Source: an uncultured virus (IMG/VR IMGVR_UViG_3300025410_000672) (taxonomy: Duplodnaviria; Heunggongvirae; Uroviricota; Caudoviricetes). Taken from it: 64,000 nt of DNA. Position 1 is the stretch's first letter. Each line of letters begins with the position of its first letter. The translations under genes and the position numbers were made by a program. This document shows positions 8,008 to 63,197 of the stretch, piece after piece. The stretch is from positions 1 through 64,000 of the IMG/VR virus record IMGVR_UViG_3300025410_000672; one strand, 5' to 3'. The notes beneath the pieces are model-generated. The model worked only from the letters and a program-made list of their open reading frames with translations. It made no database searches and was not told the origin of the DNA.

Positions 8008-8052
8008 ATCAAACCTCTATACTAAATAGTATGTCAACCATAGGAGACTCTG

Positions 8053-8724
8053 GTGTATTTACAGAACAAATATACCACTTGGTATTATTTAATAATAGCA
8101 CAGGCCCAGAAAAGAATCAACCTGCCTATTTTCGTTGAGAAACATCATATCATTCCAAAATCATTAGGTGGTAATAATAGTGATGACAATTTGGTTAGAT
8201 TAACACCGAGAGAGCACTTTGTTTGTCATCTTCTCTTAACGAAAATGGTTACAGGTGATGCCCAAAGAAAAATGTGGTTTGCTTCTTATTTAATGATGCG
8301 AGGAACAAAAAGATATAAACCTTCTGGAAGATTATATGAGATTCTTAAACAGAAAATGATACAATCACTTAAAGAAAGACCTGGACCAAATTTAGGAAAA
8401 AAACTTTCTGAAGAACATAAGAAGAAACTTAGTTTAGCACAAAAGGGAATTCCTAAAGGACCAATGTCTGAAGAGCATAGAGAGAAACTAAGAAAACCTA
8501 AAACAGAAGAGCATAAGAAGAAACTATCAGAAGTAAGATTAGGTAAATCTTGGGGACATAAACATTCGGAAGAAACTAAACAAAAAATGTCTAATTGGCA
8601 AAGGGGTATTCCTAAACCTAAAGTAACATGTGAGCATTGTGGGAAAGAATTGTCACTAATGAATTATAAAAAATGGCATGGAGATAAATGTGTCAACTGC
8701 GGCGGTAAGAGTCATGTAAAATGA
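8053..8724 (+). mobile_element. Free-standing HNH homing endonuclease with NUMOD3 repeats
   Basis: EKHHIIPKSLGG..NLV.LT.REHF.CH.LL; repeated SEEHKKKLS. Confidence 0.85.
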
Positions 8725-9214
8725 TCATGCCTTCGGGCAATTGTCTTCGGGCTGTGTAGGATCCATTTTCTGCTAGCCAAATTATTTCTGAAAGTTGTTT
8801 AGGACGAGAATTTAATGCTTCTTCTACAAAGTCTCGGAGAAATTCAAAAGTATCTCCGATTCTTCTAAAAAGATTATCATTAATCGCATCGCTATAATCA
8901 TAATAACTGTGACTTCCCATAGAAGTATAATATCTTAAACTAATACCTTTTCTACGAGCATACATTGGACAAAAACTTGTGAGGAATAAGCAATCCTCAG
9001 CAAGCCATCTTGAACGGTGAACAGATTCACCTGTTTTCTTTATTTCGTCTAAAGTAAGGATAAATGATTTTTCTGGAGGAAAGCCCTTTTTCTCCACATA
9101 GTCTGCTAAAAAGTAAACCAAGTATGCTTCTATGTCGCCTTCGAGTTCATACCCATGTTTTTCACTGGTATATTTTACAACATCATAGAAGGCCGAAACA
9201 TAGGCTCTTTCCAT
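8693..9214 (-). CDS. Hypothetical protein
   Basis: ORF; likely start MERAY at 9214, 4 nt after a TAAATA motif. Confidence 0.55.
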   Translation of the reverse strand: MERAYVSAFYDVVKYTSEKHGYELEGDIEAYLVYFLADYVEKKGFPPEKSFILTLDEIKKTGESVHRSRWLAEDCLFLTSFCPMYARRKGISLRYYTSMGSHSYYDYSDAINDNLFRRIGDTFEFLRDFVEEALNSRPKQLSEIIWLAENGSYTARRQLPEGMIILHDSYRRS

Positions 9215-9310
9215 ATTGTATTTAATAGAAAAGCCAGAACAAGTCTGGCTTTTCACTGGTTTTCTAAAAATTATTTGCGCTATGCGCTTCAATATAATTG
9301 TTTGATAAAT

Positions 9311-9589
9311 TTACTTTTTCATGTTCACAAAATCGTAGAACATTTGTGCTGTTTTAAGGATTTGATCGGCTCCTGGAATCTGTGGAGCTTCAACAGTAGT
9401 AACGACTTGGTCGCCATCTTTCTTAACAGTTAATTCAAACTGTCCCCACTTAGCCTGGTAGTCATTCCAGAGCTGAGTCTGTGCCATTTCTAATAGTTGA
9501 GTTCTTATCTCGTAGCCATTTTTCGAAAATTTAACTTCTGGGATATACTTGTTCATCTCTGTGGTCTTTTCTTCGGTATATTTAAACAT
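9311..9589 (-). CDS. Hypothetical phage protein
   Basis: ORF with AGGAG SD. Confidence 0.6.
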   Translation of the reverse strand: MFKYTEEKTTEMNKYIPEVKFSKNGYEIRTQLLEMAQTQLWNDYQAKWGQFELTVKKDGDQVVTTVEAPQIPGADQILKTAQMFYDFVNMKK

Positions 9590-9636
9590 TTTGTTTTCTC
9601 CTGTGTGTGTATGATGTTTATTTATAACAGATAAAA

Positions 9637-10227
9637 CTATGCTTGTAAATCTTTTTTTCTATTCTTTGCTGCCAAACTTAATTTTTCTCGGTGTTCATCA
9701 CTAAAAGTTATTCCTTTTCTTGATTCTGATATTTTCTTCTTTGTTTCTTCAGACCTTTTACTTCCTTTAACTGCTCCGCCTACTATATTAGTCTTAGATG
9801 CTAGACTCATTTTCTGCTTTGTTTCTTTTGATACTATTTTTCCTTTATGGGCTCTACTTATAGCCTCTCTATGTTGATCAGTTCTTCCAATAAGTTTATG
9901 TGCTTCAGAAAGTTGTATTCGTAGAATTTCAAACATTCTTGAGCACGGAACATATCTATCCATTGATTTAGTTTTTCTGTTCATCATAGAATTTAAGGCA
10001 AATATCATCTTACTTTTATTTTTATCAGATGTTATTCTAACTAATAACAAATGGCATATAAAGTGTTCTCTTGCGGTTAAGACAGCAAGATTATCTGCGT
10101 CATTTGTTCCGCCTAATGATCTTGGAATGATATGATGTTTTTCTTTATACCCTTCTAACTTTCGGGTCTTTGCTCTATTACAAATGTCTTGATAAATTTT
10201 GAGATATTTGTTATCAATAAATATCAT
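9637..10227 (-). mobile_element. Free-standing HNH homing endonuclease with NUMOD3 repeats
   Basis: EKHHIIPRSLGG..NL..LTAREHFICHLLL; SEETKKKIS repeats; paralogue of 8053..8724. Confidence 0.85.
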
Positions 10228-23749: not shown

Positions 23750-25297
23750 ATGACAGGACTGGTAGGTATAAGAGCAGCATCAAGTTCAGCAGGACCCGGA
23801 GATGCTTTTTCAGGATCTCCTATTCTTTCTGGATCATCTTTTGCTTCTGGATCGTCGTTACCACCTACAAGTGATTCATTTTCTTCTATAGGTGGATTAG
23901 GAAACTATTCAACAGCAAATGTTAGTCCTTCTCAATATCAAGGAGGTTTTGGTTCAAGCGGACAAAATGCAGGTCAGGCAGCAGCAGATTCAACTGCTAG
24001 TCAATCAAGTTCTAGTAGCAGTAGTGACAATACTGGAAAAAATCCTCAAAGAGGTTCTAGTACTAGAAAAAGAATGAGACGTGTTGATAATAAAGATTCT
24101 AGTTTAAGAGAACCACAACCAGCAGATGATAGAGTTAAATCTGCAACTAGTGATGATGCTGATATGTTCTTGGGTTTAAAAAGTTTAACACAAGAAGGAA
24201 GTAGTGGAAATAATGATGGTAGTTCTTTTTTAATTGATAGTATTCCTCCTAACTTAAACGGTGTAATACAAAGTTTTGTTCCTCAAGTAGCAGGAATGCA
24301 ATCATTATTAGGACAAATACCTAGTGCATCTTTAGGACAATTTTTAAATAATATACCATCAAGTTTACAAAGTTTATTACCAGCAGGAATGTTACCGGGA
24401 GTAACAAGCGGTTCTAATGTAAATTTAAGTACTATACAAAATTTAGCAAGCCAAGCAGGATTATCACAAAGTGCATTGTCAGGGTTATTAGGATCTAATG
24501 TAGGTAGTTCTGGAGGCAGTGGGTCTTTGCCAAGTCTTGCAAATGGTTTACAAAGTTCAGCGATATCGGGACTTTCACAAGCAATTCCTTCCAATATTGC
24601 TCAATCATTGTTCAATCCTAGTCAATTAACCAGTATGCTTCCTGCTAATTTACAAAACTTAATTCCTCAAGTTCCTCCAATATTCTCAGAAGGTGCAGAA
24701 AATCTTACATCAGCAGTAGCAAATGCTGCTCCTCAGATGGCTCCAAATAGCGACCAACCTAGTGGTGGTCAGGGAAGTAATGGATGTAACCATGTTGATC
24801 CTTCCAACGATGGAAAAAATAATACTAATACTCGTTATATTGATTATACACAAATGTTGTCACAAAATTTCTCCCTAGGTCAATTAACACTCTTGTCTGG
24901 TGTTGCTCCTGGTAGATTCCCACTAAGCGGAAAAGATTTAGATAAAGTTACTAAAAGTCTTTCTGGCGTTGCAGAAAATGTTTTAGAACCTTTAAAAACT
25001 GCTTATGGAGCATTTACTATTGTAGGTGGACTAAGAGATGATGGCGAACATAAGGATGGAAAATGTATAGATCTTTCATGGGCATGTAGTCAAACCAAAT
25101 TAATGGAAATTGCTCAATATGTACAAAACAGTCTTCCTGTATCCGAAGTTCAAATGCATCAAGGAAAAGGAAATGTAGGTTGGTTGCATATTAAATACGA
25201 CAATGGATCTTGTGGTGCTAGTGCCCAAACAAATAGTCCAGCAGGTGGACAAACTTCTGGATTAGTTGATTGGTCAACAATTCCATATACATTTTGA
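23750..25297 (+). CDS. Ser/Gly-rich baseplate-associated protein with C-terminal M15-like peptidase
   Basis: LSQNFSL...VLEPL...H..GKCID...WLHI. Confidence 0.6.
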   Translation: MTGLVGIRAASSSAGPGDAFSGSPILSGSSFASGSSLPPTSDSFSSIGGLGNYSTANVSPSQYQGGFGSSGQNAGQAAADSTASQSSSSSSSDNTGKNPQRGSSTRKRMRRVDNKDSSLREPQPADDRVKSATSDDADMFLGLKSLTQEGSSGNNDGSSFLIDSIPPNLNGVIQSFVPQVAGMQSLLGQIPSASLGQFLNNIPSSLQSLLPAGMLPGVTSGSNVNLSTIQNLASQAGLSQSALSGLLGSNVGSSGGSGSLPSLANGLQSSAISGLSQAIPSNIAQSLFNPSQLTSMLPANLQNLIPQVPPIFSEGAENLTSAVANAAPQMAPNSDQPSGGQGSNGCNHVDPSNDGKNNTNTRYIDYTQMLSQNFSLGQLTLLSGVAPGRFPLSGKDLDKVTKSLSGVAENVLEPLKTAYGAFTIVGGLRDDGEHKDGKCIDLSWACSQTKLMEIAQYVQNSLPVSEVQMHQGKGNVGWLHIKYDNGSCGASAQTNSPAGGQTSGLVDWSTIPYTF

Positions 25298-25324
25298 CAC
25301 AATCTAAATCCTATGCTATAAATA
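25294..25324 (+). promoter_or_regulatory. Composite sigma70 and T4-late promoter for tmRNA
   Basis: TTGACA-17 bp-TATAAA, with the -10 extended as TATAAATA. Confidence 0.7.
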
Positions 25325-25327
25325 GTT

Positions 25328-25637
25328 CATCATTGTTGATATCAATGTAATAAAACGAACTGGACGCCGGGGCGGTACCGGCCGCCTCCACCATAGTAGC
25401 ATTGTTTCCTAGGCCTGGCCCATGAAATCGCCCTTTGCGGTTGACAGTGCTACTTTGATGGGGGCGACAAAGGATTGACAGGCGAATAAAGATTGAAGTA
25501 GATGGTCCGGCGAAAGCTCGGTTAACGCAATAAAACTAATAAATGCAGCAAACGATAACTTTGCTCCATCTAAGGTTTCTGCTCTAGTAGCTTGACCTTA
25601 ATGAGCCCGCCGGAGCTCGGAAACAGAATCCGGCACT
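25328..25637 (+). ncRNA. ssrA: Circularly permuted two-piece tmRNA
   Basis: 3' acceptor end CGCCTCCACCA (ends 25393) precedes the 5' end GGGGGCG (25460), G3-U70; paired intervening segment; tag ORF AANDNFAPSKVSALVA* at 25545..25595; outer ends approximate. Confidence 0.9.
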
Positions 25638-31705: not shown

Positions 31706-33607
31706 ATGGCAAAGATAATCGGTATTGACCTCGGAACCACCAATAGCTGCGTTGCAGTTTTAGAAAACGGAACCCCCAAAGTAATTGAAAACGCAGAAGG
31801 TGCTAGAACAACACCAAGTATTGTTGGCTATGCTGACGATGGTGAAGTTCTAATCGGTCAACCAGCAAAGCGTCAAGCAGTAACTAATCCAACTAACACA
31901 ATTTATGCTGCTAAACGTTTCATCGGACGTCGCTTCAAAGAAGATGCTGTCCAAAAAGAAGTAAAGAATGCTCCATATAAAGTTGTGGAAGCAAAAAGTG
32001 GTGATGCGTGGATTAACGCAGGTGGCAAAGACATGGCACCTCAGCAGATATCAGCGGAAGTCCTTCGCAAAATGAAAAAGACTGCTGAAGACTATCTCGG
32101 TTATTCTGTTACAGAAGCAGTTATCACAGTTCCTGCTTACTTTAACGATGCCCAACGTCAAGCAACTAAGGACGCTGGTAAGATCGCAGGGCTTGAGGTA
32201 AAGCGTATCATCAACGAACCAACTGCTGCTGCTCTTGCATTTGGATGTGATAAGAGTGATAAGAAGGATCGTAAGGTAGCAGTATACGATCTCGGTGGTG
32301 GTACATTTGATATTAGTATAATTGATATCGCTGACACCGACGGTGATAAGCAGTTTGAGGTTCTATCCACAAACGGTGATACACATCTCGGTGGTGAAGA
32401 CTTTGACCAAAGAGTCATTGATTACCTTGTAGACGAATTTAAAAAGGAACAAGGCATTGATCTAAAGAAGGACACTATGGCTATTCAGCGTCTTAAAGAG
32501 GCTGCTGAAAAGGCAAAGATTGAGTTATCATCGGCAACTCAAACTGATGTCAATCTTCCTTATATCACTGCTGATGCTTCTGGACCTAAGCATTTGACGG
32601 TCAAAATCACCCGTTCAAAGTTTGAGGCGCTTGTGGAGGATTTGGTTCAGCGCTCTATTGCGCCATGTCAAATCGCCCTTAAAGACGCAGGTCTTAAGGC
32701 TACTGATATCGACGATGTGATATTAGTAGGCGGGCAAACTCGAATGCCAATGGTTCAAGAAGCAGTTGAAAAGTTCTTCGGTAAAGCACCACGTAAGGAT
32801 GTGAATCCAGATGAAGCAGTTGCCGTTGGTGCTGCTATCCAAGGTGCAGTATTAGGAGGTGATAAGAATGACGTATTATTACTTGACGTTACTCCGTTGT
32901 CACTTGGTATTGAGACAATGGGAGGTGTCTTTACAAAACTCATTGACAAAAATACAACTATTCCTACTAAGAAGAGCCAAGTCTTCTCAACTGCTGAAGA
33001 CAATCAGCCTGCCGTTACTATTAAGGTTGGACAGGGTGAAAGAGAACTTTTCGAGTATAATAAGTTACTTGGACTTTTTAATCTCGAAGGTATTGCTCCT
33101 GCTCGTCGTGGTATTCCACAAATTGAAGTTACATTCGATGTGGATGCTAACGGTATTCTTAGTGTTTCTGCAAAAGATAAGGGAACAGGTAAAGAACAAA
33201 AAATCACTATTCAAGCGAATGGTGGTTTAACTGAGGCTGAAATTGACCAAATGGTTAAAGATGCCGAAGCGAATGCCGCAGAGGATCATAAGAGAAGGGA
33301 GCTCATAGATGCTCGCAACAATGCAGATGCTAATGTAGCAAATATTCGCAGAGAACTTGAAGAGCATGGCGACAAAATATCTGCTGATGATAAGCAGAAA
33401 ATCGAAGATGTTCTTAAGGATGCAGAGGAAACTATCAAGGGAGAAGATAAAGAAGCTATTGATAAGGCTACACAGAAAATCTTCGAAGTTGCCGGTCCTC
33501 TATTCGCCGCCGCACAAGCAGCAAAACAAGAAGAACAATCAAGTAATAGCGACCCTGAAGTAAATCCAGATGTTGTTGACGCTGAATTTACCGAAGTAAA
33601 AGAGTAA
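31706..33607 (+). CDS. dnaK: Chaperone DnaK (Hsp70)
   Basis: [23 protein letters not shown]-terminal DAEFTEV. Confidence 0.98.
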
Positions 33608-33649: not shown

Positions 33650-33729
33650 TTGAGCGGGATTGCCAAATGGGGTTCCGCTCAATATACCGAAAGGTAAACA
33701 AAATCTTGCTTAATAAAGGAGATAAGAAG
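33650..33729 (+). promoter_or_regulatory. ROSE-like RNA thermometer upstream of hsp20
   Basis: Three hairpins; the last is TCTTGCT-TAATAA-AGGAGA over the SD. Confidence 0.7.
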
Positions 33730-34155
33730 ATGAATCAGACATTAAATTATGCCCCACTTACACGATTTGCTGTAGGTTTTGAAGATTTATTCAGAGAAAT
33801 GGATAAACTTCACCTTAACAACACAAATGCAGCATATCCTCCATACAATATCGTAAGTATCGATGAGGATCGATTTTTAATCGAAATTGCTGTAGCAGGC
33901 TTTGCAGAAGACGAGTTAGATATTACTCTAGAAAGAGGTCAACTTGTTATAACAGGCAATAAATCAGAAGATGAGGAACCTCGCAATTTTGTTCATCGAG
34001 GCATTGCAACAAGAAATTTCACAAGAAATTTCCGATTAGCAAACTTTATCGAAGTTAATAATGCGAGCCTTAAAAATGGTCTTCTTGTAATAGAATTAAA
34101 AAGACTTATTCCTGAAGAAATGAAGCCTAAGAAAATTGCAATCGCTCATAAGTGA
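33730..34155 (+). CDS. Small heat-shock protein (IbpA/Hsp20)
   Basis: YPPYNI..EIAVAGF..HRGIA.R.F..NGLL; start at MNQTL after the SD. Confidence 0.92.
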   Translation: MNQTLNYAPLTRFAVGFEDLFREMDKLHLNNTNAAYPPYNIVSIDEDRFLIEIAVAGFAEDELDITLERGQLVITGNKSEDEEPRNFVHRGIATRNFTRNFRLANFIEVNNASLKNGLLVIELKRLIPEEMKPKKIAIAHK

Positions 34156-34223
34156 TTGTACTATATAAGTGTAGGGGCAATACCGTCCCCTACACTGATA
34201 AATATAAAATGGTGAAAAATATA

Positions 34224-34523
34224 ATGACTGTTGTTGATCCTGTTGCTGTAGAAAAAACCAAGTTAAAAATTGAAGAACCTGGTTTTTATAAGGTTATTTT
34301 CTTAAATGACAATGTTACTCCTATGGAGTTTGTTGTTGAGATATTACAGAAAATCTTTAAACATGACTTAGAAACTAGCCAGAAGATTATGCTAACTGTA
34401 CACACCGAAGGATCTGCTGTAGCTGGTGTCTATACATATGAAATAGCCGAACAGAAAGGTGTTGAAAGTACTGTTCTTGCTCGAAATAATGGATTTCCTC
34501 TTCAAGTAAAAGTTGAAAAATAA
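34224..34523 (+). CDS. clpS: N-end rule adaptor ClpS
   Basis: YKVIFLND..TPMEFVV..IML.VH..G.A.AG.Y.YEIAE.K..FPL; start uncertain. Confidence 0.9.
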   Translation: MTVVDPVAVEKTKLKIEEPGFYKVIFLNDNVTPMEFVVEILQKIFKHDLETSQKIMLTVHTEGSAVAGVYTYEIAEQKGVESTVLARNNGFPLQVKVEK

Positions 34524-35086
34524 TGAGTTTGAGAGAACTTACATTTGAAAGGCATAAAATTGCCGAAAGGCAAGAATTTGTAAAAGTTCTTTTCTCTGGA
34601 AATATTAATCCATTGTTTTATGCAACATTTCTAAAAAATCAACATCCTATGTATGAGTTTTTAGAAGTTAATGCAGATATAAATCGTGTCACAGAAGGAC
34701 TTTTTGATTATCACAGATCTTTCAAAATTCTAGAAGATTATTTAGAACTTTGGCCAGATGATGAAGATAACAAACCAACTATCCTTCCTGTAGTAAAAGA
34801 TTACCTAGATCATATTAAACATCTTTCTGCTACTGAACCTAGATTATTAATGGCTCATATCTACGTAAGACATATGGGAGACTTAGCAGGTGGACAAATG
34901 ATTGCTAAAAAAGTTCCAGGATCTGGAAAATTTTATCAATTTAAAGATCCTAATGCACTTAAATTAGCAATCAGAGAAAAACTCGACGATTCGTTATCTG
35001 AGGAAGCAAATACTTGTTTTGACTTTGCTATTAGAACGTTTAACGAATTAATGCTCTTAGATATACCAAAATATAACAATGAGTAA
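34523..35086 (+). CDS. Heme oxygenase (HemO/Ho1-like)
   Basis: LRELT..RH..AE (proximal His); AHIYVRHMGDLAGGQMI. Confidence 0.9.
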   Translation: MSLRELTFERHKIAERQEFVKVLFSGNINPLFYATFLKNQHPMYEFLEVNADINRVTEGLFDYHRSFKILEDYLELWPDDEDNKPTILPVVKDYLDHIKHLSATEPRLLMAHIYVRHMGDLAGGQMIAKKVPGSGKFYQFKDPNALKLAIREKLDDSLSEEANTCFDFAIRTFNELMLLDIPKYNNE

Positions 35087-35759
35087 TGTTTGGCCCCGTC
35101 TTATAGAGATTCAAGATCTCTTCATAGATAAACTTAATAAAACAGGTTTAGAAATATTCGAACCAGGGATGGATCGATTTAATCAACCTGGTTGGGTTAA
35201 TAGAGTTTGGGGTAGTAGAAATTATCGTCGTGCTCATGTTGATGTTGTAGATGCTCGCGAAACTAAAGGGCTGTGGATGATGCATTGCTGTATCTTTCCA
35301 CATGTTGATAATAATGCTCCTATCTTTGGATATGATGTTGTAGCAGGTAAGAATAAGATCACAGGATGTTTCCATGATTTTTCAATTACAGATGATCCTA
35401 GTCATCCCTTAATAGAATGGTTTGGAAATGAAGTTAGTAAACTAACATGGCGTAAAAAAAGAGATCTTCCAGATTGGGCACAGCGCATCTTTAGTGAACA
35501 CATGATTGCTGCTGGTAATGTTTCTAAAGAAGATGAATTAGATCAAATCTTTGCTATGATTGAAAAGAATCTTTCACACTATTTAGAATGTGTAGGAGAA
35601 ACAAGCGGTACTACATTTAATAATGCAGAAGAACAAAACTATTACTGCGAAAATCAGAAGCAAAACCCGCATACTCCTAAGGTTATGTCTAGTTTAGGGC
35701 TAGATGAGGAAGATGTGAGAGTGTTCATACAGGACTGTTTGTTCCCTGAAATAGTATAA
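35079..35759 (+). CDS. Ferredoxin-dependent bilin reductase (PcyA/PcyX-like)
   Basis: RRAHVD, MHCCIFP..PIFGYDVV, HDFS, R.LPDW..IFS, YCENQKQNPHT..LF; coupled to heme oxygenase. Confidence 0.85.
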   Translation: MSNVWPRLIEIQDLFIDKLNKTGLEIFEPGMDRFNQPGWVNRVWGSRNYRRAHVDVVDARETKGLWMMHCCIFPHVDNNAPIFGYDVVAGKNKITGCFHDFSITDDPSHPLIEWFGNEVSKLTWRKKRDLPDWAQRIFSEHMIAAGNVSKEDELDQIFAMIEKNLSHYLECVGETSGTTFNNAEEQNYYCENQKQNPHTPKVMSSLGLDEEDVRVFIQDCLFPEIV

Positions 35760-42764: not shown

Positions 42765-43796
42765 TATGTACAAGGTTAGTACTGTAGAAAAGAAAAACGT
42801 TGTCGAAAAAGAATCTTTCACAAAAGATGGCAAGTTTGCTATCATTAAACAAGGTTATAGATGGGGTTACTTTACTACAGACGAGAAACCTAATCTTGAA
42901 AATTACGATCCAGAAGAAGGCCTTATGATTTATGATTATAATGTTGATGATCATAGTTTTGACGACGGGTGTTGGATTGAATTTGAATACGACGACGAAT
43001 TAACTGAAGATGAACAGGCTGAGTTTGAAGATGCGTTCAACGAAAACTGGTATTCGGGCGTTGAAGATTTAGGCTGGGATCAAGACGAAAGTGAAGTGAT
43101 CTTCTACGGTGAACTCGAAGTTGAAGAAATCAAAGAAGAAAATGATGACTTAGACAATGTTGCTGACGGAACTACTCGATCTCACGTTATTGAAGACGAT
43201 GACGATGATATTGAAGAATACGAACGAGACTAATGAAAGTTCATATTGGACGTTATCCAAGTAACTGGGTTACTAAAAGAAATCCAAATGCTGAACAAAA
43301 AGTTCAAGTAAGGATTGATCCTTGGGATACTTGGAACATGGCAGAAACATTGGCAGATATTATACTGCCAATGCTGAAACAACTACGTGATGAGAAACAC
43401 GGTTCTCCTGGAGGATTAAAACCTTTTAATGAAACTTCTAACTCTCCACAAGGCTGTTTTGATTGGTACAAGGATGATGATAACAAGGCTTGGGAATTAG
43501 GTCATAAACAATGGCATGAGATTATGGATAAAATGATTTGGTCATTTGAACAAATTGTTGATCGTGATAGAGACAGTCAATTTCACAGTGGTACACATGA
43601 TATTAAATGGGTTCCTATTAAAGACGCAGACGGAAACACCACAAGTTATCAAATGGTAAAAGGTCCTAAAGATACACATAAATTTGACCAAAAAGGTTAC
43701 ACAGAGTATTATGAGAAAATACAAGAAGGTTTAGATCTTTTTGGAAAATATTATATGAATTTATGGGACTAATAAATAAATAGGAGAGTATAGCGA

Positions 43797-43867
43797 GCGG
43801 GATTAGTTTAGGGGTAAAACTAAAGATTTCCAATCTTTCGTCATCGGTTCGATTCCGTTATCCCGCT
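43797..43867 (+). tRNA. tRNA-Gly(UCC), CCA not encoded, overlapped antisense by an endonuclease ORF
   Basis: GCGGGAT/ATCCCGC acceptor, loop TT-TCC-AA, U73. Confidence 0.85.
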
Positions 43868-44585
43868 CGGTGTACTTTTCTTCCCACAATTTTATTCTTT
43901 CTAATAATTCTTCAAATGTTATGTCACATTTACCAGATTTAACTTTATTTTCTGAGTGTAATATTATTCTACAATTAGCAGGATGAGATATAATTTTCGA
44001 ATCAATATTATTAGCGAATCCATAACTAACTGATATAATATGATCTCTGCTAACTCCTGATATGTTCTTTGGTTGTTTTTTTCTTTTTTTTCCTGGACAA
44101 GTATACCATCCATATTTTTCTATTAGTTCCAAATCAAACTCTTCAGGATAATGATATATATTAAATCTAAACCTTGAGGCAGAATAGTATTTTTCTTTAA
44201 GTGTTTTAATGTATGGCGAACATCGTCGTATAGATCCATCTAAATTTCTATTAGAGTAATATTGATTAGTATGTTTACATAAAATAAATTTTACTTTAGA
44301 ACAAGGATGTTTTTCGATTGGCTGCGGCCCCCTTTTTCGAGGAGTTTTATTTGTTATTTTAGCAGCACAACTCTGAGAACAATATTTGTTTTTTCTTTTA
44401 CTATATTCAAGCGGTGTTTGGCAATAATTACAATTAGTAGGATTTAGTTGATATTTTTTTATCGAGGCTTCTTTATTAACTTTGTTTCTATATTTTGTCC
44501 CGCACGACAATGAACAAAATTTTCCAAAAGATCCGTTACTTAGGATAAATTCTAAATTACATTCTTGACATATCGCTCGTTTCAT
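43803..44585 (-). mobile_element. Zn-finger/HNH-like homing endonuclease inserted at the tRNA-Gly 3' end
   Basis: CxxC..FCSLSC and CxxC..YCSQSC fingers; SRDHIISV...HPANC....H.EN..K; TAAATA 5 nt before ATG 44585. Confidence 0.75.
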
Positions 44586-44648
44586 TGTAGTATTTAGCAT
44601 AAGATATATAAATAAGTTCAGAGTGGTAAACCCGCTCCAAGGACACAA

Positions 44649-45236
44649 ATGATTCCAATACTGGATCAAAATAATATCTATAGAAAATTTAATTTCTCCA
44701 GTCTTTTTACAGATAAAGAAGATAAGGAGATTTGTAGAATTGTTAAAGAAATTATCGATTCTGGAAATTATTATACCAACAGTCCAAAATATCAAACAAA
44801 AGAAAATGTATTCGGACGACAAGAAGAAATTTGGATGAAACTTCGTATGACTTTTGTTTTATCTGTTTTTTTATATCTAGGTCGAGAAGTTAAAATATCT
44901 AATGTCTTAGCGTGGAGCTTTATGACTAATCATGATACAGCAGAAAATAGAGATAATCTCTGGCACAATCATCTTTCAGATCCAAATAAAACAAAATTAA
45001 GCGGAATTTATTATGCTTACATACCGGATGATGTGAGAGATTATGATACCTGCGGAACAGAATTTGCTCCAAACGGAGTAGATGCTCCAGAAAGATTCTT
45101 TGTACGTCCTGCTCCTAAAACTTGGCTAATATATCCCAGTAAAATATGGCATCGTCCTGGAATAATTCAAAGTCACAAAAATAGATTTGTAGTAGCGTGT
45201 GATGTAGAATTAAACGATGTACAATTAAAAATATGA
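44649..45236 (+). CDS. Putative 2OG-Fe(II) oxygenase-like protein
   Basis: WHNH..LSGIYY..GTEF..YPS.IWH..R DSBH pattern. Confidence 0.55.
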   Translation: MIPILDQNNIYRKFNFSSLFTDKEDKEICRIVKEIIDSGNYYTNSPKYQTKENVFGRQEEIWMKLRMTFVLSVFLYLGREVKISNVLAWSFMTNHDTAENRDNLWHNHLSDPNKTKLSGIYYAYIPDDVRDYDTCGTEFAPNGVDAPERFFVRPAPKTWLIYPSKIWHRPGIIQSHKNRFVVACDVELNDVQLKI

Positions 45237-45410
45237 TAAAATAATATCTTGACGCAATCCAAACGATATAGTAAAAATCAATACAGTTATAAGACAAGAT
45301 TATAAATACTTGTCAGAGTAATAAGATACTTTAACCAGGGAGGTGTTGAGTAAACTACTCATATAACTTGTGTAAAATATGCCAAACTTTAACTTTAAGG
45401 AGAATAAGAC

Positions 45411-46178
45411 ATGGCAATATTAACTAAGACTGCCGCAGTTTCAGACACAGACGCACAAGTAGTCGATTTACGTGGTATGTGGATCGGACTAGTAACACTC
45501 AATGTTTTTTACCTAATTGTACGTATATATGAACAAATCTTTGGCTGGAGAGCTGGCCTTGATTCGTTCGCTCCAGAGTTCCAGACATATTGGATGTCAA
45601 TCCTATGGACTGAAATTCCTCTAGAACTAGTTTCGGGTTTAGGCCTCGCAGGTTATCTTTGGAAGACTCGCGATCGTAACCTTGCAGCAGTTTCTCCACG
45701 TGAGGAAATGCGCAGACTAGTTGTTCTTGTACAGTGGCTCGTAGTTTACGGCATTGCCATTTATTGGGGTGCTTCGTTCTTTACAGAGCAGGACGGTACT
45801 TGGCACATGACAGTTATTCGTGATACAGACTTTACTCCAAGTCACATCATTGAGTTCTATATGTCATATCCAATCTACAGCGTTATTGCTGTTGGTGCTT
45901 TCTTCTATGCAAGAACACGTATTCCATACTTCGCTCAAGGCTATTCATTAGCATTCTTGATCGTTGCTATTGGACCATTTATGATTATTCCAAACGTTGG
46001 TCTCAACGAGTGGGGTCATACTTTCTGGTTCATGGAAGAACTCTTTGTAGCACCGCTACATTGGGGCTTTGTGTTCTTTGGTTGGATGGCACTAGGCGTA
46101 TTTGGTGTTGTTCTACAGATTCTAGGTCGTGTTCACGCTCTAGTTGGCAAAGAAGGTGTTGCTCTACTAACAGAGTAA
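45411..46178 (+). CDS. pmoC: Particulate methane monooxygenase subunit C
   Basis: WRAGLDSFAPEF, WGASFFTEQDGTWH..IRDTDFTPSH, PNVGLNEWGHTFWFMEELF..PLHWGF; closely matches Methylocystis PmoC as recalled. Confidence 0.97.
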   Translation: MAILTKTAAVSDTDAQVVDLRGMWIGLVTLNVFYLIVRIYEQIFGWRAGLDSFAPEFQTYWMSILWTEIPLELVSGLGLAGYLWKTRDRNLAAVSPREEMRRLVVLVQWLVVYGIAIYWGASFFTEQDGTWHMTVIRDTDFTPSHIIEFYMSYPIYSVIAVGAFFYARTRIPYFAQGYSLAFLIVAIGPFMIIPNVGLNEWGHTFWFMEELFVAPLHWGFVFFGWMALGVFGVVLQILGRVHALVGKEGVALLTE

Positions 46179-46201
46179 ACCCTGTTAAAAACCCTCCCAA
46201 G

Positions 46202-46233
46202 AGCCGCTCGCGCAATGCGGGCGGTTTCTTTTT
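46202..46233 (+). terminator. Terminator after pmoC
   Basis: GCCGCTCGC-GCAAT-GCGGGCGGT followed by T-run. Confidence 0.8.
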
Positions 46234-46245
46234 GATAAATACACC

Positions 46246-47142
46246 ATGTGTATTGTTATTGGAAAATACTTTGAAGGAACTGGTTGGGTTGCTGTAAAGA
46301 ACCGTGATCGTAACTATATCCCCGAAATTAGTTTTAAGAAGAAAATTGGTGATGGTGTAGAAATACTTTACTTCTGGGATGACATTACACAGTATTGCGA
46401 AGGAATGAATTCCGCAGGTGTAGGTGTACTAAGTGCTAGTCTTATGGTTATGGACGACGAGAAAGAAATAGAGAAGCGTTCAAAGACTCCAAGTAAAGAC
46501 GGTGCAAAAATTAAAAAAGCATTAACATTTCCAAATATTAAAGCAGTTGCTATGAGTCTTATTAAACAAAAACTTACAGGCAATACACTTATATTCAATC
46601 AAGAAACTATGTATCTACTCGAAGGTGCCTGGAAGCCAGGAGAATATAAATCAAAGGGATATGATTATATTATTAAAGAAATTCCAAAGGATCAAACAGT
46701 TGTAAGAACTAACTACGGTATTTGGATACCTTGGGCAGGATATCAGCGTGGAGTTGACGACAATCAAACAATGAGTCGTATTAGTGCCGAATCACGTAGA
46801 CTTATAGGCGAAGATGTTGTTAAAAAAGCAGAAGACCCCGAAGATATTCTAGATGGCTTAACATTAGATTATACACACGACGGACAACTTAATGCTTTAC
46901 GCACAACTACTAAAAAGAAAAAAATGCGTACTACAAGTCAGATAATGATTATTCCAAAAGAAAAAACTATGTATGTTCGTCCTGTACAAAGTAATATGAA
47001 GTTCAACTTCTGGGAATTAAATGATCCAAAACAACAGACATGGATCGAGATTCTAAGTAATCGTGTATTGTATATGAATCTTAAAGACAGTGATCCAGGA
47101 AACGATCCACCGTTTGATCATAAGTTAGATCATAATTCTTGA
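46246..47142 (+). CDS. Ntn-hydrolase-like protein (NRDE/TANGO2-like)
   Basis: N-terminal Cys2, KNRDR, EGMNS.GV, RTN. Confidence 0.6.
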   Translation: MCIVIGKYFEGTGWVAVKNRDRNYIPEISFKKKIGDGVEILYFWDDITQYCEGMNSAGVGVLSASLMVMDDEKEIEKRSKTPSKDGAKIKKALTFPNIKAVAMSLIKQKLTGNTLIFNQETMYLLEGAWKPGEYKSKGYDYIIKEIPKDQTVVRTNYGIWIPWAGYQRGVDDNQTMSRISAESRRLIGEDVVKKAEDPEDILDGLTLDYTHDGQLNALRTTTKKKKMRTTSQIMIIPKEKTMYVRPVQSNMKFNFWELNDPKQQTWIEILSNRVLYMNLKDSDPGNDPPFDHKLDHNS

Positions 47143-47179
47143 CATAATCCAAATAAACATATATATTAATACTATGAAC

Positions 47180-47269
47180 GGTGGGGTGCCTGAGAGGTCG
47201 AAAGGAGCGGTTTGCTAAACCGTCGTACCGGAAACGGTACCCAGGGTTCGAATCCCTGTCCCACCGCCA
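47180..47269 (+). tRNA. tRNA-Ser(GCU)
   Basis: Long variable arm, loop TT-GCT-AA, G73, CCA. Confidence 0.95.
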
Positions 47270-47601
47270 TTATATGCAGTTTTATGTGCGATAAAACTGG
47301 CTAAATACAAAACGAGCTTTTTATCGTAAACCAAAGGATTAATATTATGCGTAAGTCCAAAGCAAAAGCAATCGCTATAGCACAGACAGAAAAGCAGAAT
47401 GCTATGTTTGTTATAACTTCAATGCTTGCTCTTGCTGTTATGCTAGTTTTTTACATAGCATAACTTAAAGACTTAAATTTCTAAAAATTTAGAGTTTCCC
47501 ATAACTTGGGAAAGGCAAGTTGAACGTTCTCATATTTCGTTCAACACTTACTATGTTCGTCTGGCATTGTGCTAACGAACTTAACAAGAAAGGTAAAAAT
47601 T

Positions 47602-48090
47602 ATGTTTAATATGAAAAATATTGTGATGGCTGCTATTGTGGCTATTTGCTTTGCTACACCGGCATCAGCAGATCCTGTTACAGACCTTTTTGATGGAATG
47701 TTTGGACAGCCTCACACTCAGACTGCTGTAAAGCAGAGCCGTCATTCTCGACACACACAGCCTGCTCAAGAACAGGCAGATAACGGCGGACTATTCGGTG
47801 GCATTATTTCCGCTGGTCAGCGTATGGTTGCTTCTTTTTACGGACACGGTGAGAAGTTGAGCAAATATACTGCTAGTGGACAGCGTTTTAATCCACATGC
47901 TATGACAGCAGCACATAAGACACTTCCATTTGGTACACAACTTCATGTTTGTCACCGTGGATGTGTAACTGTAACTGTTAATGATCGCGGTCCATTTGTT
48001 CGCGGACGTCAATTAGATCTTTCATATGGCGCTGCTAGAGCAATTGGAATGACTAGTACAGCATCAGTGCATGTTGCTAGATTAAACTAA
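47602..48090 (+). CDS. RlpA-family lytic transglycosylase (DPBB)
   Basis: Signal peptide; ASFYG..TASG.RF...MTAAHKTLPFGT..VNDRGPF..R.LDLS. Confidence 0.9.
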   Translation: MFNMKNIVMAAIVAICFATPASADPVTDLFDGMFGQPHTQTAVKQSRHSRHTQPAQEQADNGGLFGGIISAGQRMVASFYGHGEKLSKYTASGQRFNPHAMTAAHKTLPFGTQLHVCHRGCVTVTVNDRGPFVRGRQLDLSYGAARAIGMTSTASVHVARLN

Positions 48091-48096
48091 TATTTT

Positions 48097-48125
48097 AGAG
48101 GCTGCTCCTGAAGCAGCCTCTTTTT
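48097..48125 (+). terminator. Rho-independent terminator
   Basis: GAGGCTGCT-loop-AGCAGCCTC followed by TTTTT. Confidence 0.85.
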
Positions 48126-48598
48126 ACGACTCGAGGCTAATTAATGTTATAGGAGCCTCAAATGACTGTTGTAGATTTTGTTGTTTTTCAAGAAAAACAA
48201 AAACTTGTTAGAGAACTTAAAGAATGGCGTGAGAGACTTAATTTGGCTTATGAATTTGATTGGAAAGATCCCAGTAAACAAATATGTCATAGTGAAGTAG
48301 AAAGATTAAGAAAACTAGTCGAAATCGATGAAACAATTATTGACAAAATTTCTAAACATGTATAAAGTAAGTAATATGTTTCGACTTAAAAACTATATAG
48401 ATTTTAATCATCTAAAAGAAATTAATTCGGGTTATTTCAAACATCTTTTTATAGCACTCTATTTTGTGTTTATAACTATTATTAGCGCCGTTACTGGATT
48501 AATACATGCTTTCATTCCTTTCCTATTTCCATTCACTCCTTACCTTCTTGTTAAAAAAGTAGTAGATGGAACTGAAAAATATTTCATGAAAAAATAAA

Positions 48599-50613: not shown

Positions 50614-51042
50614 ATGCCTAGAGGAATTAAAGGAATACCAAAAACTTATCTTTGCTTACATTGTGGAAAAGAGAATAAATTCAGCTTTAGTAGTACAAAT
50701 AAGTTTTGCGATAATAAATGTCAAAAAGAATTTGAAGGTAAAGAAAAAGTTAAACTATGGTTAAAGGGAGATAAAGAACCAACTAAAAGTATCATAGTTA
50801 GATATCTAAAAGAAACTAAAGGATATAAATGTGATGTTTGTGGTTTATCTGAATGGAACGGATCATCTATAACATTAGAAATTGATCATATAGATGGCGA
50901 CTCAACAAACAATCATCCTTCCAATTTTAGATACATGTGTCCAAACTGCCATTCGCAAACACCTACATATAAAGGTGGAAATAAAGGTAATGGCAGACCA
51001 AGACATCAAAAGGATTATACAATAATACGCTCTCTTAGTTAA
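50614..51042 (+). mobile_element. HNH homing endonuclease in the tRNA array
   Basis: CDVCG..W....LEIDHIDGD..NN...N.R.MCPNCHSQT; stop codon lies inside tRNA-Thr. Confidence 0.9.
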
Positions 51043-51637: not shown

Positions 51638-52525
51638 TTAGATTTTTAATCTTGCTTCTATATATTCAGCAATTTGTTCTGCGACATTTACTTTAACATA
51701 AGTTTCAAAACCTTCAAAACCTGGAGCAGAATTTGCTTCACATACTTTGAACCCGTCGTTGTCAAATAATAAGTCGATGCCGGCTATATCTAATCCTAAG
51801 GCTCTTGCTGTTTTAATACAAAGTGTTTCTATTTCTTCTGTTACTTCAAATGCTTCACCAGTGCCGCCACCTGTGATATTAGCACGAAAGTCACCTTGTG
51901 GTCCTGTTCTTTTCATTGCACCAATAACTCTGTTACCTAAAACCCAAACACGAAGATCTGTGCCTTTGCTATTATCTATAAACTCTTGAACTATCATAAT
52001 TTTCTTAAGACCTAGTCCGTCTATTAGTCCCATAAGGTCTTCAAATAATTTTTTATTCTCACAAAGATAAACACCTCTACCATAACTCCCTTGTAGAACT
52101 TTTACTACACAAGGAAATCCAATTTCTCCTTCTACTAAAGAACTAGAAACTGGAAACTTAACTAACATAGTTTTTGGAGTTGGAATATTGTTTTGAGATA
52201 AAATTTGATGTGCTAATAATTTGTCTTTAACATTATTAATACCATCTATACTGTTAACTGTTGTTACAGATAATTTTTCAAGTTGTCTAATAACTGCTGA
52301 AGTAAAATAATTTGTTCCCGAACCTGTTCTATTTAGAACTATCTTAGGAAGAGTGATTTGTGTATTATTATATCTAACACTTTTTCTGTTATGTCTATTA
52401 ACAATAATATCAAATTGATCAGGATTCATTAACTTAGCATTTAACTTTAGGTTACTAAATGCTTTCAAAAGTCTATCGTTTTCATAGTGTTCTATACTAT
52501 GTTGACTCAAAATCCATATAGACAT
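51638..52525 (-). CDS. RimK-family ATP-grasp ligase
   Basis: DKL..Q.L....PTPKT, G..G.GV, VQEFI..DLRV, DFRAN...GG, AGIDLL..CEANSAPGF. Confidence 0.9.
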   Translation of the reverse strand: MSIWILSQHSIEHYENDRLLKAFSNLKLNAKLMNPDQFDIIVNRHNRKSVRYNNTQITLPKIVLNRTGSGTNYFTSAVIRQLEKLSVTTVNSIDGINNVKDKLLAHQILSQNNIPTPKTMLVKFPVSSSLVEGEIGFPCVVKVLQGSYGRGVYLCENKKLFEDLMGLIDGLGLKKIMIVQEFIDNSKGTDLRVWVLGNRVIGAMKRTGPQGDFRANITGGGTGEAFEVTEEIETLCIKTARALGLDIAGIDLLFDNDGFKVCEANSAPGFEGFETYVKVNVAEQIAEYIEARLKI

Positions 52526-52762
52526 GCAGGGATCCTCTCGCATTGTATTTATTGCTATTAGTTTAGTAAAAACGTGTTATTATTCTCCTTTATTTTTCCG
52601 GTAAATATATAACCAACCAAATTTGGTGGTATTACTGATCGCATACGGACAGCCGATCAGCAGACGCAACTAAGGAGCAACATATCTATGGCTCATAAGG
52701 ATAATAATTAATCACCCCGCTCAAGAAGGGTAGTTAGTTGCGCTTATCATGAAAGGAAAAAT

Positions 52763-56092: not shown

Positions 56093-57907
56093 ATGAAAAA
56101 ATGGAAAAGATATATACCATGGATTACTTTTGCTGTAGTTGCAGGTTTACTATTTGCAATGTGGCAAAACCAAGAAAAACACCCAGATATTAGAGAAATT
56201 AATTTTAGTGATTTCTTAGTTCAAATCGATGAAGGGCGTGTACACGATGTCACAATTGAAGGAAATGAAGTTACAGGTCATTTTACTGACAATCGTACAT
56301 TTGAAACATATCTACCAAGCGGACACACAATTATACCTAAACTAGAAGCAAAGAAAGTTCAAATTACAGCAAAACCTATAGGTGGAGAAAGTATATGGAC
56401 TACTCTAGCATCTAACATTTTACCTTTAATTATTTTTATGTTTGTTTGGTTCTGGCTAGCAAGATCAATGACTGGTCGAGGAGGCGGCGGCGCTATGGGA
56501 TTTGGAAAATCTAAAGCGAAATTACTCGAAACACAAGGAACAGTTAAATTTGACGATGTTGCTGGTGTTGATGAAGCAAAAGAAGATTTACAAGAAGTTG
56601 TTGAATTTCTTCGTGAACCTAATAAATTCCAATTAGTTGGTGGAAAAATACCGAGAGGCGTTCTGCTAGTCGGACCACCTGGTACAGGTAAAACATTACT
56701 TGCTAGAGCAGTAGCAGGTGAAGCAGGTGTACCATTCTTTAGTATTTCTGGTTCAGACTTTGTAGAAATGTTTGTTGGTGTTGGTGCTAGTCGTGTTCGT
56801 GACATGTTTGAACAAGCAAAGAAAAATGCTCCATGCATTATCTTTGTTGACGAAGTTGATGCTGTTGGTAGACATCGCGGCGCGGGATTAGGCGGAGGAA
56901 ACGACGAACGTGAACAAACACTTAATCAATTACTTGTTGAGATGGATGGCTTTAATGAAAATGAAGGAATTATTATTATTGCAGCAACAAACAGAGTTGA
57001 CGTATTAGATCCTGCCCTACTTCGTCCAGGTCGCTTTGATCGTCAAATTACTGTTCCTAATCCAGACTTTATCGGACGTGAAAAGATCTTAAAGGTTCAT
57101 ACACGTAAAGTTCCTTTGTCTCCAGATGTTGATCTTAAAGTTGTAGCAAGAGGAACACCTGGATTTAGTGGTGCTGACTTAATGAATCTTGTTAATGAGG
57201 CTGCATTACTTGCTGCTCGTCGTGGTAAAAGAATTGTTATGAAGAAAGAGTTTGAAGATGCTCGAGATAAGATTCTTATGGGAGCAGAACGTCGTACACT
57301 ATTAATGACTGAAGAAGAAAAGAAAATGACTGCTTATCACGAAGGTGGACATGCTCTTGTTAGTCTTAACATGCCAGGTTCTACGCCAATTCATAAAGCA
57401 ACGATCATTCCACGTGGTCGTGCTTTAGGTATGGTCCAGTCATTACCTGAACGTGATGAGATTAGTCAAACATATGAACAATTTATTGCTATGTTAGCAA
57501 TGGCAATGGGAGGGCGTGTTGCTGAAGAATTAATTTTTGGACACGATAAGGTAAGTTCAGGTGCTGCTGGTGATATCCAACAAGCAACCAAGATTGCTCG
57601 TGCTATGGTTACACAACTTGGATTTAGTGACAAACTTGGAACAGTTGCTTATAGTGAACCACAACACGAACAGTTCCTTGGATACTCAATGGGTCGTGAA
57701 CAATCTGTATCACAAGAAACCCAAAAGACTATCGATCATGAAGTTCGTCGCTTTATTCAAGAAGGATATGAAACAGCAAAGAAGATCTTAACTGAGAAGA
57801 GAGATCAACTTGACAAACTTGCAGAAGCTCTTATAATGTATGAGACACTAAGCGGTCAAGAGATAATCGATCTTTTGGACGGTAAGGAACCAGTCAGGGA
57901 GTCTTAA
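56093..57907 (+). CDS. ftsH: ATP-dependent zinc metalloprotease FtsH
   Basis: Two TM segments, [23 protein letters not shown]. Confidence 0.97.
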
Positions 57908-62616: not shown

Positions 62617-62619
62617 TTT

Positions 62620-62645
62620 TGGGGTATCGTCTAATGGTAGGACAG
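62620..62645 (+). pseudogene. Truncated tRNA 5' fragment (Gln-like)
   Basis: TGGGGTATC plus D arm GTCT-AATGGT-AGGAC, then breaks off into a late promoter. Confidence 0.65.
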
Positions 62646-62657
62646 TATAAATACTAT

Positions 62658-63197
62658 ATGTTATCCAAAAATATTGATGAAAATTTAATTAAAGAATTAT
62701 TAGATAGCGGAAAGACTAATAAAGAGATTTCTTTTATTCTAGATATTTCGGCACCAACTGTTACATATTGGAGAAAGAAACTTAAAAAAGGATTATCAAT
62801 AAAAAGATACAATTGGAAAGAAATACAAGAAGCACACAATAATGGATCTTCTTATTCAAATTTAAGAAAAGAATTTGGTGTAACTAAACGGTCAATCGAA
62901 ATGGCTAAGAAGAGGGGAGATTTTAGTACAAGAAAAATTCCTTGTATGGATCCGGAACAAGCAAAATTAAGAAAAAGAAATAGAAGAGAAGCATGGATGA
63001 GATATCATAGCCGAAAGAAATATCAGACTCCCGCCGACGAAGATATAAAAAAACTACAAGAATTTTATGCTAACTGTCCACCTGGATACGAAGTCGATCA
63101 TATTATACCAATTTCTAAGGGAGGATTACATTCAATATCTAATTTACAATATTTAACAAAATCTGAAAATCGTGCTAAAAGTAATAAAATAATTTAA
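62658..63197 (+). mobile_element. HTH + HNH homing endonuclease
   Basis: N-terminal HTH repeats; CPPGYEVDHIIPISKGGLH...NLQYLT..EN..KSNK. Confidence 0.88.

Follow-up and report, generated by a model that had tools for sequence, protein, structure and literature searches.

The window, by which we mean the whole stretch of 64,000 nucleotides analysed here (positions 1 to 64,000 of the IMG/VR virus record IMGVR_UViG_3300025410_000672), carries an intact and apparently stand-alone pmoC gene, which encodes subunit C of the methane monooxygenase of methanotrophs and is set between a late-promoter-like motif and a terminator-like hairpin. The record is a linear viral contig of 77,737 bp with a completeness estimate of 22%, from which the full genome is estimated by extrapolation at roughly 350 kb. 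The closest relative of the locus lies on another viral contig of 128.8 kb, L002, to which the window is repeatedly compared below. The features at pmoC are the following.

45249..45278, plus strand: weak sigma-70-like promoter candidate (TTGACG, 18 nt, AAAAAT; score 9/12), of putative function.
45293..45314, plus strand: 6-bp perfect inverted repeat, GACAAG/CTTGTC, around TATAAATA; 22/22 positions identical in L002.
45301..45308, plus strand: TATAAATA, a T4-type late-promoter-like -10 element 102 nt before the start codon; putative promoter.
45315..45410, plus strand: putative 5' untranslated leader of ~96 nt, ending in an AAGGAG ribosome-binding site.
45411..46178, plus strand: pmoC coding sequence, 255 amino acids, recognised by family matches and six metal-site residues.
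46201..46233, plus strand: intrinsic-terminator-like hairpin and T-run (stem-loop at 46201-46227 with 12 pairs, 7 of them G-C, and a 3-nt loop, then CTTTTT).

In the list of open reading frames (ORFs) of the window, pmoC is an intact plus-strand frame with an ATG start. Its product matches the Pfam AmoC/PmoC family PF04896 over positions 5-244 of the 245-position profile (E 5.5e-108; 360.4 bits against a cut-off of 26.7 bits), and the NCBIfam models NF041641 (358.7 bits, cut-off 319) and TIGR03078 (335.8 bits, cut-off 280.6) are likewise exceeded, in agreement with the original prediction, made from the letters alone, that the gene encodes a complete PmoC. A scan of PHROGs, which are without a PmoC family, gave no PmoC hit. 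Against solved structures, the protein scores highest with alphaproteobacterial PmoC chains (3rfr_C 527, 4phz_K 524 and 7s4m_G 519 bits) and lower with gamma-type PmoC chains (330-343 bits), whereas solved AmoC chains reach only 211-222 bits.

Both metal-site motifs that had been read from the sequence, DGTWH...H and N-EWGH...H, are there. NEWGH at residues 199-203 provides the ligands N199 and H203, to which H217 is added; by the offset of +28 obtained from alignment with 1yew_C, these are positions 227, 231 and 245 in M. capsulatus numbering, an Asn/His/His set that we take to be the second metal site. DGTWH at residues 128-132 provides D128 and H132, together with H145, and these correspond by the same offset to Asp156, His160 and His173, the copper-site residues named by Chen et al. 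(2020; Nat Microbiol 5:1504; PMC7674155). All six residues are invariant across the 159 PmoC rows compared (79 viral and 80 bacterial).

Relatives were gathered in two scans. Viral contigs yielded 117 pmoC-encoding stretches, the best 80 of which were retained; 55 of these are alpha-type, with 84-94% identity to the window protein, and 25 are gamma-type (56-68%). The bacterial genome scan contributed the best 80 among the matches listed, from Methylocystis, Methylosinus and related metagenome-assembled genomes (MAGs), and here identity to the window protein rises to 95%. The nearest of these bacterial genes (94-95% identical proteins) lie directly upstream of pmoA in Methylocystis genomes and MAGs, in pmoCAB order. 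Together with the 527 bits to a solved Methylocystis chain, this bears out the close match to Methylocystis PmoC that the original prediction had stated. Over the best 80 bacterial copies listed, tblastn finds pmoA after pmoC in 46 and not in 34, three of the latter being without room for it. A tblastn search of an annotated phage collection, which may omit near relatives, gave no match.

A quick maximum-likelihood tree with 160 rows puts the window protein beside L002 and L026/L027, within a set composed of 54 alpha-type viral rows and three rows from lake Methylocystis/Beijerinckiaceae MAGs (support of 89 in the Shimodaira-Hasegawa-like approximate likelihood ratio test, SH-aLRT). The alpha-type viral set nests inside Methylocystis-type operon PmoC, distant from the gamma-type outgroup. 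A deduplicated tree (100 rows, with five gamma-type rows as outgroup) joins the 34 distinct alpha-type viral proteins into one clade with weak support (SH-aLRT 78.5), a topology that is compatible with a single ancient capture of pmoC by phages. The phylogeny that had been suggested as a check thus places the protein within Methylocystis/Methylosinus PmoC, in trees without PxmC or AmoC rows; the exclusion of those two rests on the solved-chain scores and the operon neighbours. PxmC in particular is ruled out by the 94-95% identity to operon PmoC, again with the tree holding no PxmC reference. By its sequence relationships, the window protein is a Methylocystis-type PmoC, the methanotroph subunit C rather than AmoC or PxmC.

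The gene appears to stand alone. A search for pmoA (PF02461) gave no match at E<=1 in the entire 77,737-bp record, about 22% of the genome, and none of the 80 viral loci has pmoA near pmoC, although in 69 the sequence continues for 1200 nt or more downstream; pmoA is also absent from all five related pmoC-carrying records, four of which are complete. The claim of the original prediction that neither pmoA nor pmoB is present thereby stands for pmoA; for pmoB, the PF04744 search of the record was empty, but its control gave no signal either. Stand-alone copies are also found in bacteria. Several Methylocystis genomes hold a stand-alone PmoC identical to the operon PmoC, nine sets of identical proteins spanning both classes, and in two bacterial MAG loci (L118 and L148) two tandem pmoC genes lie about 1.3 kb apart without pmoA.

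What most clearly sets the window gene apart from its bacterial relatives is its nucleotide sequence. The pmoC coding sequence has a GC content of 43.2% and a third-position GC content (GC3) of 34.8% (0.349); GC3 ranges over 0.21-0.47 in the 80 viral copies and over 0.74-0.91 in the 80 bacterial ones. Nucleotide identity to bacterial Methylocystis-type pmoC is only ~74%. Relative synonymous codon usage correlates at +0.55 with that of the 48 other window genes, as against -0.37 to -0.51 for bacterial pmoC. These figures agree with the predicted AT-rich, phage-like codons, with the reservation that amelioration is incomplete, as pmoC has a higher GC3 than 46 of the 48 other window genes and lies about 2 SD over their mean (0.220, sd 0.066). 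The recoding of pmoC toward phage composition is therefore strong and incomplete.

Synonymous sites have been turned over completely, and the protein has hardly changed. Compared with 12 bacterial copies, the proportion of synonymous differences (pS) lies past saturation at 0.82-0.90, a sign of opposite base composition, and that of nonsynonymous differences (pN) is 0.055-0.139; with pS above the correction limit, dN/dS against bacterial pmoC is incalculable. Among phages it can be obtained: against 13 other phage copies, dS is 0.67-2.3 and dN/dS 0.03-0.10. At the protein level, the window product departs from all six nearest bacterial proteins at just 13 positions, nine of them within the first 16 residues, and over residues 16-255 identity to bacterial PmoC is 94-95% with no difference in length. 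Outside the N-terminus, the sole phage-specific change held by a majority is K168R (26 of 34 phage rows versus three of 43 bacterial rows), positions 93 and 105 being variable; the idea of a specialised phage variant of the PmoC core was dropped for this reason. Saturated synonymous sites and the low dN/dS among phage copies support the long residence of pmoC in phages under purifying selection that had been proposed from codon usage. Since the protein is near-frozen despite full synonymous turnover, it presumably must still fit host PmoA and PmoB and bind copper.

Comparison with L002 delimits the unit in which the gene is carried. The flanks of the two contigs are 76-82% identical and the cassette occupies a syntenic position, and around pmoC the homology covers exactly 45267-46235, from promoter to terminator, while the neighbouring genes differ; neither the 298-residue ORF at 46246-47142 nor the block 43800-45240 has a counterpart in L002. 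The terminator that had been predicted is found as the stem-loop and T-run listed above, and in L002 paired C-G to T-A changes, which by eye read as compensatory, appear to preserve its stem. The arrangement recurs more widely: 46 of 48 distinct viral pmoC loci have a GC-rich hairpin within 75 nt after the stop codon, 29 of them with a T-rich tail, and the background in random windows is 92 of 810, 19 with tail.

The motif at the other end of the cassette was originally taken for a late promoter. The T4 late promoter is TATAAATA, recognised by gp55-RNA polymerase with no need of a -35 element. Of 49 distinct viral sequences upstream of pmoC, 33 have the octamer on the coding strand no more than 200 nt from the gene (20 of 31 alpha-type, 13 of 18 gamma-type), mostly 65-119 nt before the start codon, against a background of 30 in 2054 200-nt windows of the same loci (1.5%); its reverse complement is upstream of pmoC in only two of the 49. 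The promoter core is identical to that of L002 at 31/34 and 22/22 positions, and the 30 nt before it at only 12/30. Taking the window phage and L002 together, there are 25 copies of the octamer, of which 24 are oriented with the local genes (by eye) and 18 are intergenic (by crude ORF calling), and it precedes the endolysin gene (37268), the transfer-messenger RNA (tmRNA) and, in L002, DnaK and Hsp20.

Several observations count against a late promoter, or against late timing as a rule. The octamer is not over-represented: 11 copies stand in the window where shuffles give 11.1, and two in the remaining record where 3.6 would be expected. The 33 positive upstream sequences are not independent, as the 49 are partly homologous and fall by eye into about nine families that carry the motif and six that lack it. 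In the window, two copies precede the start of the longest ORF of the next gene by only 7 and 11 nt, and the octamer stands before the major capsid gene (gp23) in only one of four related phages. Among the 86 ORFs of the record, which covers 22% of the genome, PHROGs annotation shows no gp55-like late sigma factor, no search directed at gp55 having been made. In 16 of the 49 distinct phage upstream regions the octamer is missing, and one alpha-type group without it has, by eye, a conserved sigma-70-like TTGAC ... TATAAT arrangement and a GC-rich leader hairpin instead. Late timing is therefore not universal. The group in question comprises contigs of 165-174 kb (L004, L005, L014, L016, L021, L022, L036, L052 and L054), and its promoter arrangement suggests that pmoC may be expressed there at a different time. 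Finally, no terminator was detected after the 2OG-Fe(II) oxygenase-like gene upstream of pmoC, so read-through into pmoC is possible.

From the prediction of a late promoter, then, the motif itself remains, as a recurrent element conserved in L002; enrichment in the window does not accompany it, and we infer its promoter role at 45301-45308 from its recurrence and conservation. Likewise, the predicted independent transcription unit finds comparative backing in the recurrence of promoter motif and terminator and in the block shared with L002, with the lack of a detectable upstream terminator on the other side. These comparisons support the view that phage pmoC usually forms a separate unit, with a promoter of T4 late type at one end and a terminator at the other. 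From the cassette, one would expect a discrete transcript running from about 45315 to about 46233.

The other upstream elements are less distinctive. Sigma-70-like promoter sites are not enriched in the region (14 found, 11.0 expected), and the TTGAC of the candidate is conserved in L002. The inverted repeat GACAAG/CTTGTC around the octamer may be a regulator site. The first 64 nt of the leader are identical to L002 at 52 positions; its fold is no better than that of shuffles (z -1.32), for which reason a riboswitch-like leader was dropped as a candidate, and an Rfam scan over 43500-48500 passed only two tRNAs, with no match in the pmoC leader. The predicted AAGGAG Shine-Dalgarno sequence is located at 45397-45402, 8 nt upstream of the ATG.

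All of this sits on a genuine phage genome, as supported by 18 tRNA genes in the window, phage gene content, the viral record and junctions bridged in other sequencing runs. Window GC is 35.2%. Genes recognised through PHROGs include a class I ribonucleotide reductase, an endolysin with two spanins and two prohead/ClpP-like proteases, and further window genes encode a polynucleotide kinase, exonucleases and many HNH/homing endonucleases; outside the window, the record also encodes QueD, a DNA methyltransferase and tail-fibre and baseplate-like proteins. Four of five related pmoC-carrying records have a T4-type Gp23 capsid gene. Features outside the pmoC cassette that bear on host, neighbourhood or function are listed here.

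7495-10227, 43803-44822, 50614-51042 and 62619-63197 in the window, and 440-1828 in L162: HNH/homing endonuclease regions.
25290-25637, plus strand: permuted two-piece alphaproteobacterial-type tmRNA (RF01849, 112.3 bits, gathering score 50; RF04321, 98.6 bits).
31706-33607, plus strand: Hsp70/DnaK (868 bits).
33667-34155 and 34152-34523, plus strand: Hsp20 and a small 'ATP-dependent protease' PHROG match (PHROGs/Pfam).
35079-35759, plus strand: ferredoxin-dependent bilin reductase homologue (PF05996, 64 bits).
46246-47142, plus strand: ORF of 298 amino acids with a Met-Cys start, directly 3' of the pmoC terminator.
47569-48090, plus strand: RlpA-like lipoprotein with a double-psi beta-barrel (lytic transglycosylase; PF03330, 76.7 bits) and a signal-peptide-like N-terminus.
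51638-52543, minus strand: RimK-family ATP-grasp ligase (PF08443, 172 bits).
56093-57907, plus strand: full FtsH-type membrane AAA+ protease (Peptidase_M41 238 bits, AAA, FtsH_ext).

Independently of pmoC, the alphaproteobacterial type of the tmRNA argues for an alphaproteobacterium as host. The tmRNA is absent from the ARAGORN output. A copy of TATAAATA at 25317-25324 shortly precedes position 25329, where the RF04321 match begins, and this stretch is also conserved in L002. The host is most likely a Methylocystis-like alphaproteobacterial methanotroph. The bilin reductase homologue is a cyanophage-like gene, although pmoC and the tmRNA suggest a methanotroph host, and photosynthesis-related genes in pmoC-phages were remarked on by Chen et al. 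(2020; PMC7674155).

Immediately downstream of the cassette, the 298-residue ORF has neither a Pfam nor a PHROG hit. It falls in Atlas viral hypothetical clusters, one of which carries PF03417 on 16% of its members; PF03417 (AAT) is a family of N-terminal-nucleophile hydrolases. The RlpA-like gene that follows has a local GC content of 41-44%, higher than its surroundings, and is conserved beside pmoC in L002. The RimK-family ligase adjoins a cluster of seven tRNAs and may be the 'cofF' reported for two pmoC-phages by Chen et al. (2020). The homing load is unusually high, with at least seven HNH/homing endonuclease genes in 77.7 kb, several on the minus strand of a genome otherwise on the plus strand.

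Starting from the observed identity and intactness of the gene, its phage context, its selection regime and the anatomy of its cassette, we propose that pmoC is an auxiliary metabolic gene, a helper of a freshwater phage of an estimated 350 kb or so whose relatives have a T4-type capsid gene and which most likely infects a Methylocystis-like methanotroph. In this view, phages would have taken the gene long ago from a pmoCAB operon copy of Methylocystis type, and its codons would since have shifted toward phage usage with the protein nearly unchanged. Its cassette would comprise the late-type promoter TATAAATA (possibly with a weak sigma-70 promoter as well), a leader of ~96 nt, a strong ribosome-binding site, the coding sequence and an intrinsic terminator. 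During infection, probably late, phage PmoC would enter the host membrane and assemble with host PmoA and PmoB; with the copper-site subunit thus replaced or supplemented, methane oxidation could still yield energy and reductant as host expression fails. Promoter use, timing, assembly with host subunits and the benefit to the phage are the parts of this proposal that we infer. Overall, we give this explanation a probability of about 0.85. Cyanophages carry psbA (D1), a lone membrane subunit of a host energy-conserving complex, and the arrangement proposed here would be analogous. A pmoC carried by phages ties viruses to the main biological methane sink in lakes.

A bolder version of this proposal takes the psbA parallel further. 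The cassette would be a mobile moron, captured once from a Methylocystis-like ancestor and spread among unrelated large T4-like phages (165 to >500 kb), and would work with FtsH, DnaK and Hsp20 as a D1-style repair kit; damaged host PmoC would then be extracted and swapped for phage PmoC late in infection, and PmoC turnover would be the rate-limiting weakness of the particulate methane monooxygenase (pMMO). FtsH, DnaK, Hsp20 and the small protease could be a membrane-protein quality-control set. FtsH is present in the window record and in three of five related pmoC-phage records and absent from two complete ones, and the co-occurrence of FtsH, DnaK and Hsp20 invites a repair-cycle hypothesis without supporting it. 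We regard this version as unlikely.

A different role for the protein itself has also to be considered. Phage PmoC could be a takeover or exclusion factor that poisons pMMO assembly, alters the membrane or blocks superinfection, or it could be a neutral passenger. The N-terminal stretch of residues 1-16 does set the protein apart from all its nearest host counterparts, the mode of action is not known according to Chen et al. (2020; PMC7674155), and Table 1 of that paper includes fragmented or partial pmoC in some phages. Such roles sit poorly with the six metal ligands, which are invariant in 79 viral copies, and with the near absence of majority changes outside the N-terminus (K168R alone), as expected if a fit to PmoA/PmoB and copper is needed; a passenger is further contradicted by a dN/dS of 0.03-0.10 that persists past synonymous saturation. 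A takeover factor or passenger is thus improbable, and a helper subunit that joins the host enzyme remains the explanation we prefer.

An artefact of assembly, in which pmoC of a co-occurring Methylocystis was joined to phage DNA or a host fragment mis-binned, is a further rival; a chimeric join with host DNA had been named as grounds for refutation. According to Chen et al. (2020; PMC7674155), phage scaffolds often end at pmoC because the community contains genes like it; contigs of other runs do break within the gene, at 45857-46013, and IMG/VR classes the record of L002 as a provirus. Other phage pmoC variants share identical stretches of up to 59 nt with the gene, which accounts for the breaks; with bacterial pmoC the longest such stretch is 23 nt. 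Four runs that had not been flagged as a possible source supply contigs that bridge the 5' junction (X4, 44669-45992; X6, 44271-45857; X9, 45103-45553) and the 3' junction (X4, 46013-47152; X5, 46033-47228; X6, 45968-47204; X9, 46099-46765) with 0 differing letters. These runs are freshwater metagenomes of one year, perhaps of one campaign. Inside pmoC, no host-like mosaic segments or recent gene conversion were found: third-position identity to bacterial copies is 0.23-0.57 in each 30-codon window, and nucleotide identity to the listed bacterial copies is 0.68-0.75, at a GC3 (0.349) far from their 0.74-0.91. With the same cassette in the syntenic place of the independently assembled L002, the chance that the locus is a chimera is negligible. 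Practically as small is the chance that the protein is an AmoC or PxmC acting on ammonia or another substrate: the best-scoring NCBIfam model bears the name AmoC_BACT and the Pfam family the name AmoC, names that do not separate AmoC from PmoC, and amoC-phages exist in freshwater lakes according to a 2026 preprint, but the scores to solved chains, the pmoA that follows the nearest listed bacterial genes in named Methylocystis genomes and the nesting of the protein inside Methylocystis/Methylosinus PmoC, in a tree without a PxmC reference, all speak for PmoC.

How does the window compare with systems already known? Relative to bacterial PmoC (3rfr, 4phz, 7s4m), the protein has 94-95% identity, the same length and the same six metal-site residues, and its gene is unlike bacterial pmoC in its ~74% nucleotide identity, GC3 of 0.35, different first 16 residues, lack of pmoA on the 3' side and flanking phage signals. 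It resembles stand-alone bacterial pmoC in that Methylocystis and Methylosinus also keep extra stand-alone copies. The likeness to T4 late promoters consists in the same octamer at a short distance upstream, with 24 of 25 copies oriented with the local genes; unlike in T4, a gp55/gp33 homologue is not seen in the ~22% of the genome covered, enrichment of the octamer is lacking, and in only one of four relatives does the octamer stand before the capsid gene. With cyanophage psbA and viral amoC the window appears to share the principle of a single membrane subunit of a host energy complex carried on a phage. It differs from them in enzyme and host, and PmoC is not known to turn over as rapidly as D1.

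The closest counterparts are the pmoC-phages of Chen et al. (2020; PMC7674155), who described 22 genomes from lakes rich in methane; these are 159-527 kb long, have 32-44% GC and up to 29 tRNAs, and carry pmoC without pmoA or pmoB. The PmoC of these phages is >90% similar to the PmoC of Methylocystis, Methyloparacoccus or Methylobacter living alongside them and diverges at the termini; Hsp20 is frequent, two genomes carry cofF, and the phages are reported to be related to cyanophages. In three gamma-type pmoC-phages, pmoC was among the top expressed genes together with structural genes. The window shares with the alpha-type members, for which a Methylocystis host was predicted, an apparently stand-alone pmoC on a low-GC, tRNA-rich freshwater phage with Hsp20, and with pmoC-phages in general a PmoC up to 95% identical to that of methanotrophs and divergent mostly at the N-terminus. 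Its 35% GC, estimated size and RimK/CofF-like gene fit a 352-kb alpha-type genome with 35% GC said in that paper to carry cofF. The original prediction that the class had already been described is thus correct, and the find is a clean, intact member of it.

What the present analysis contributes is incremental: a recurrent promoter/terminator cassette, synonymous turnover with a near-frozen protein, the tmRNA as a clue to the host, and the co-occurrence of FtsH, DnaK and Hsp20. In the literature searched, no paper combines pmoC with "late promoter", and pmoC-phage and codon occur together only in Chen et al. (2020) and one unrelated preprint. The words promoter, terminator, FtsH, DnaK and chaperon do not appear in the main text of Chen et al. 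(2020), where codon occurs a single time, in connection with tRNAs; the 2026 amoC-phage preprint infers late expression from transcripts, with no promoter analysis in its main text. Compared with the main text of Chen et al. (2020), the anatomy of the cassette and the synonymous saturation are therefore additions made here, and a T4-late-type promoter with a terminator would explain, at the level of sequence, why metatranscriptomes show late co-expression.

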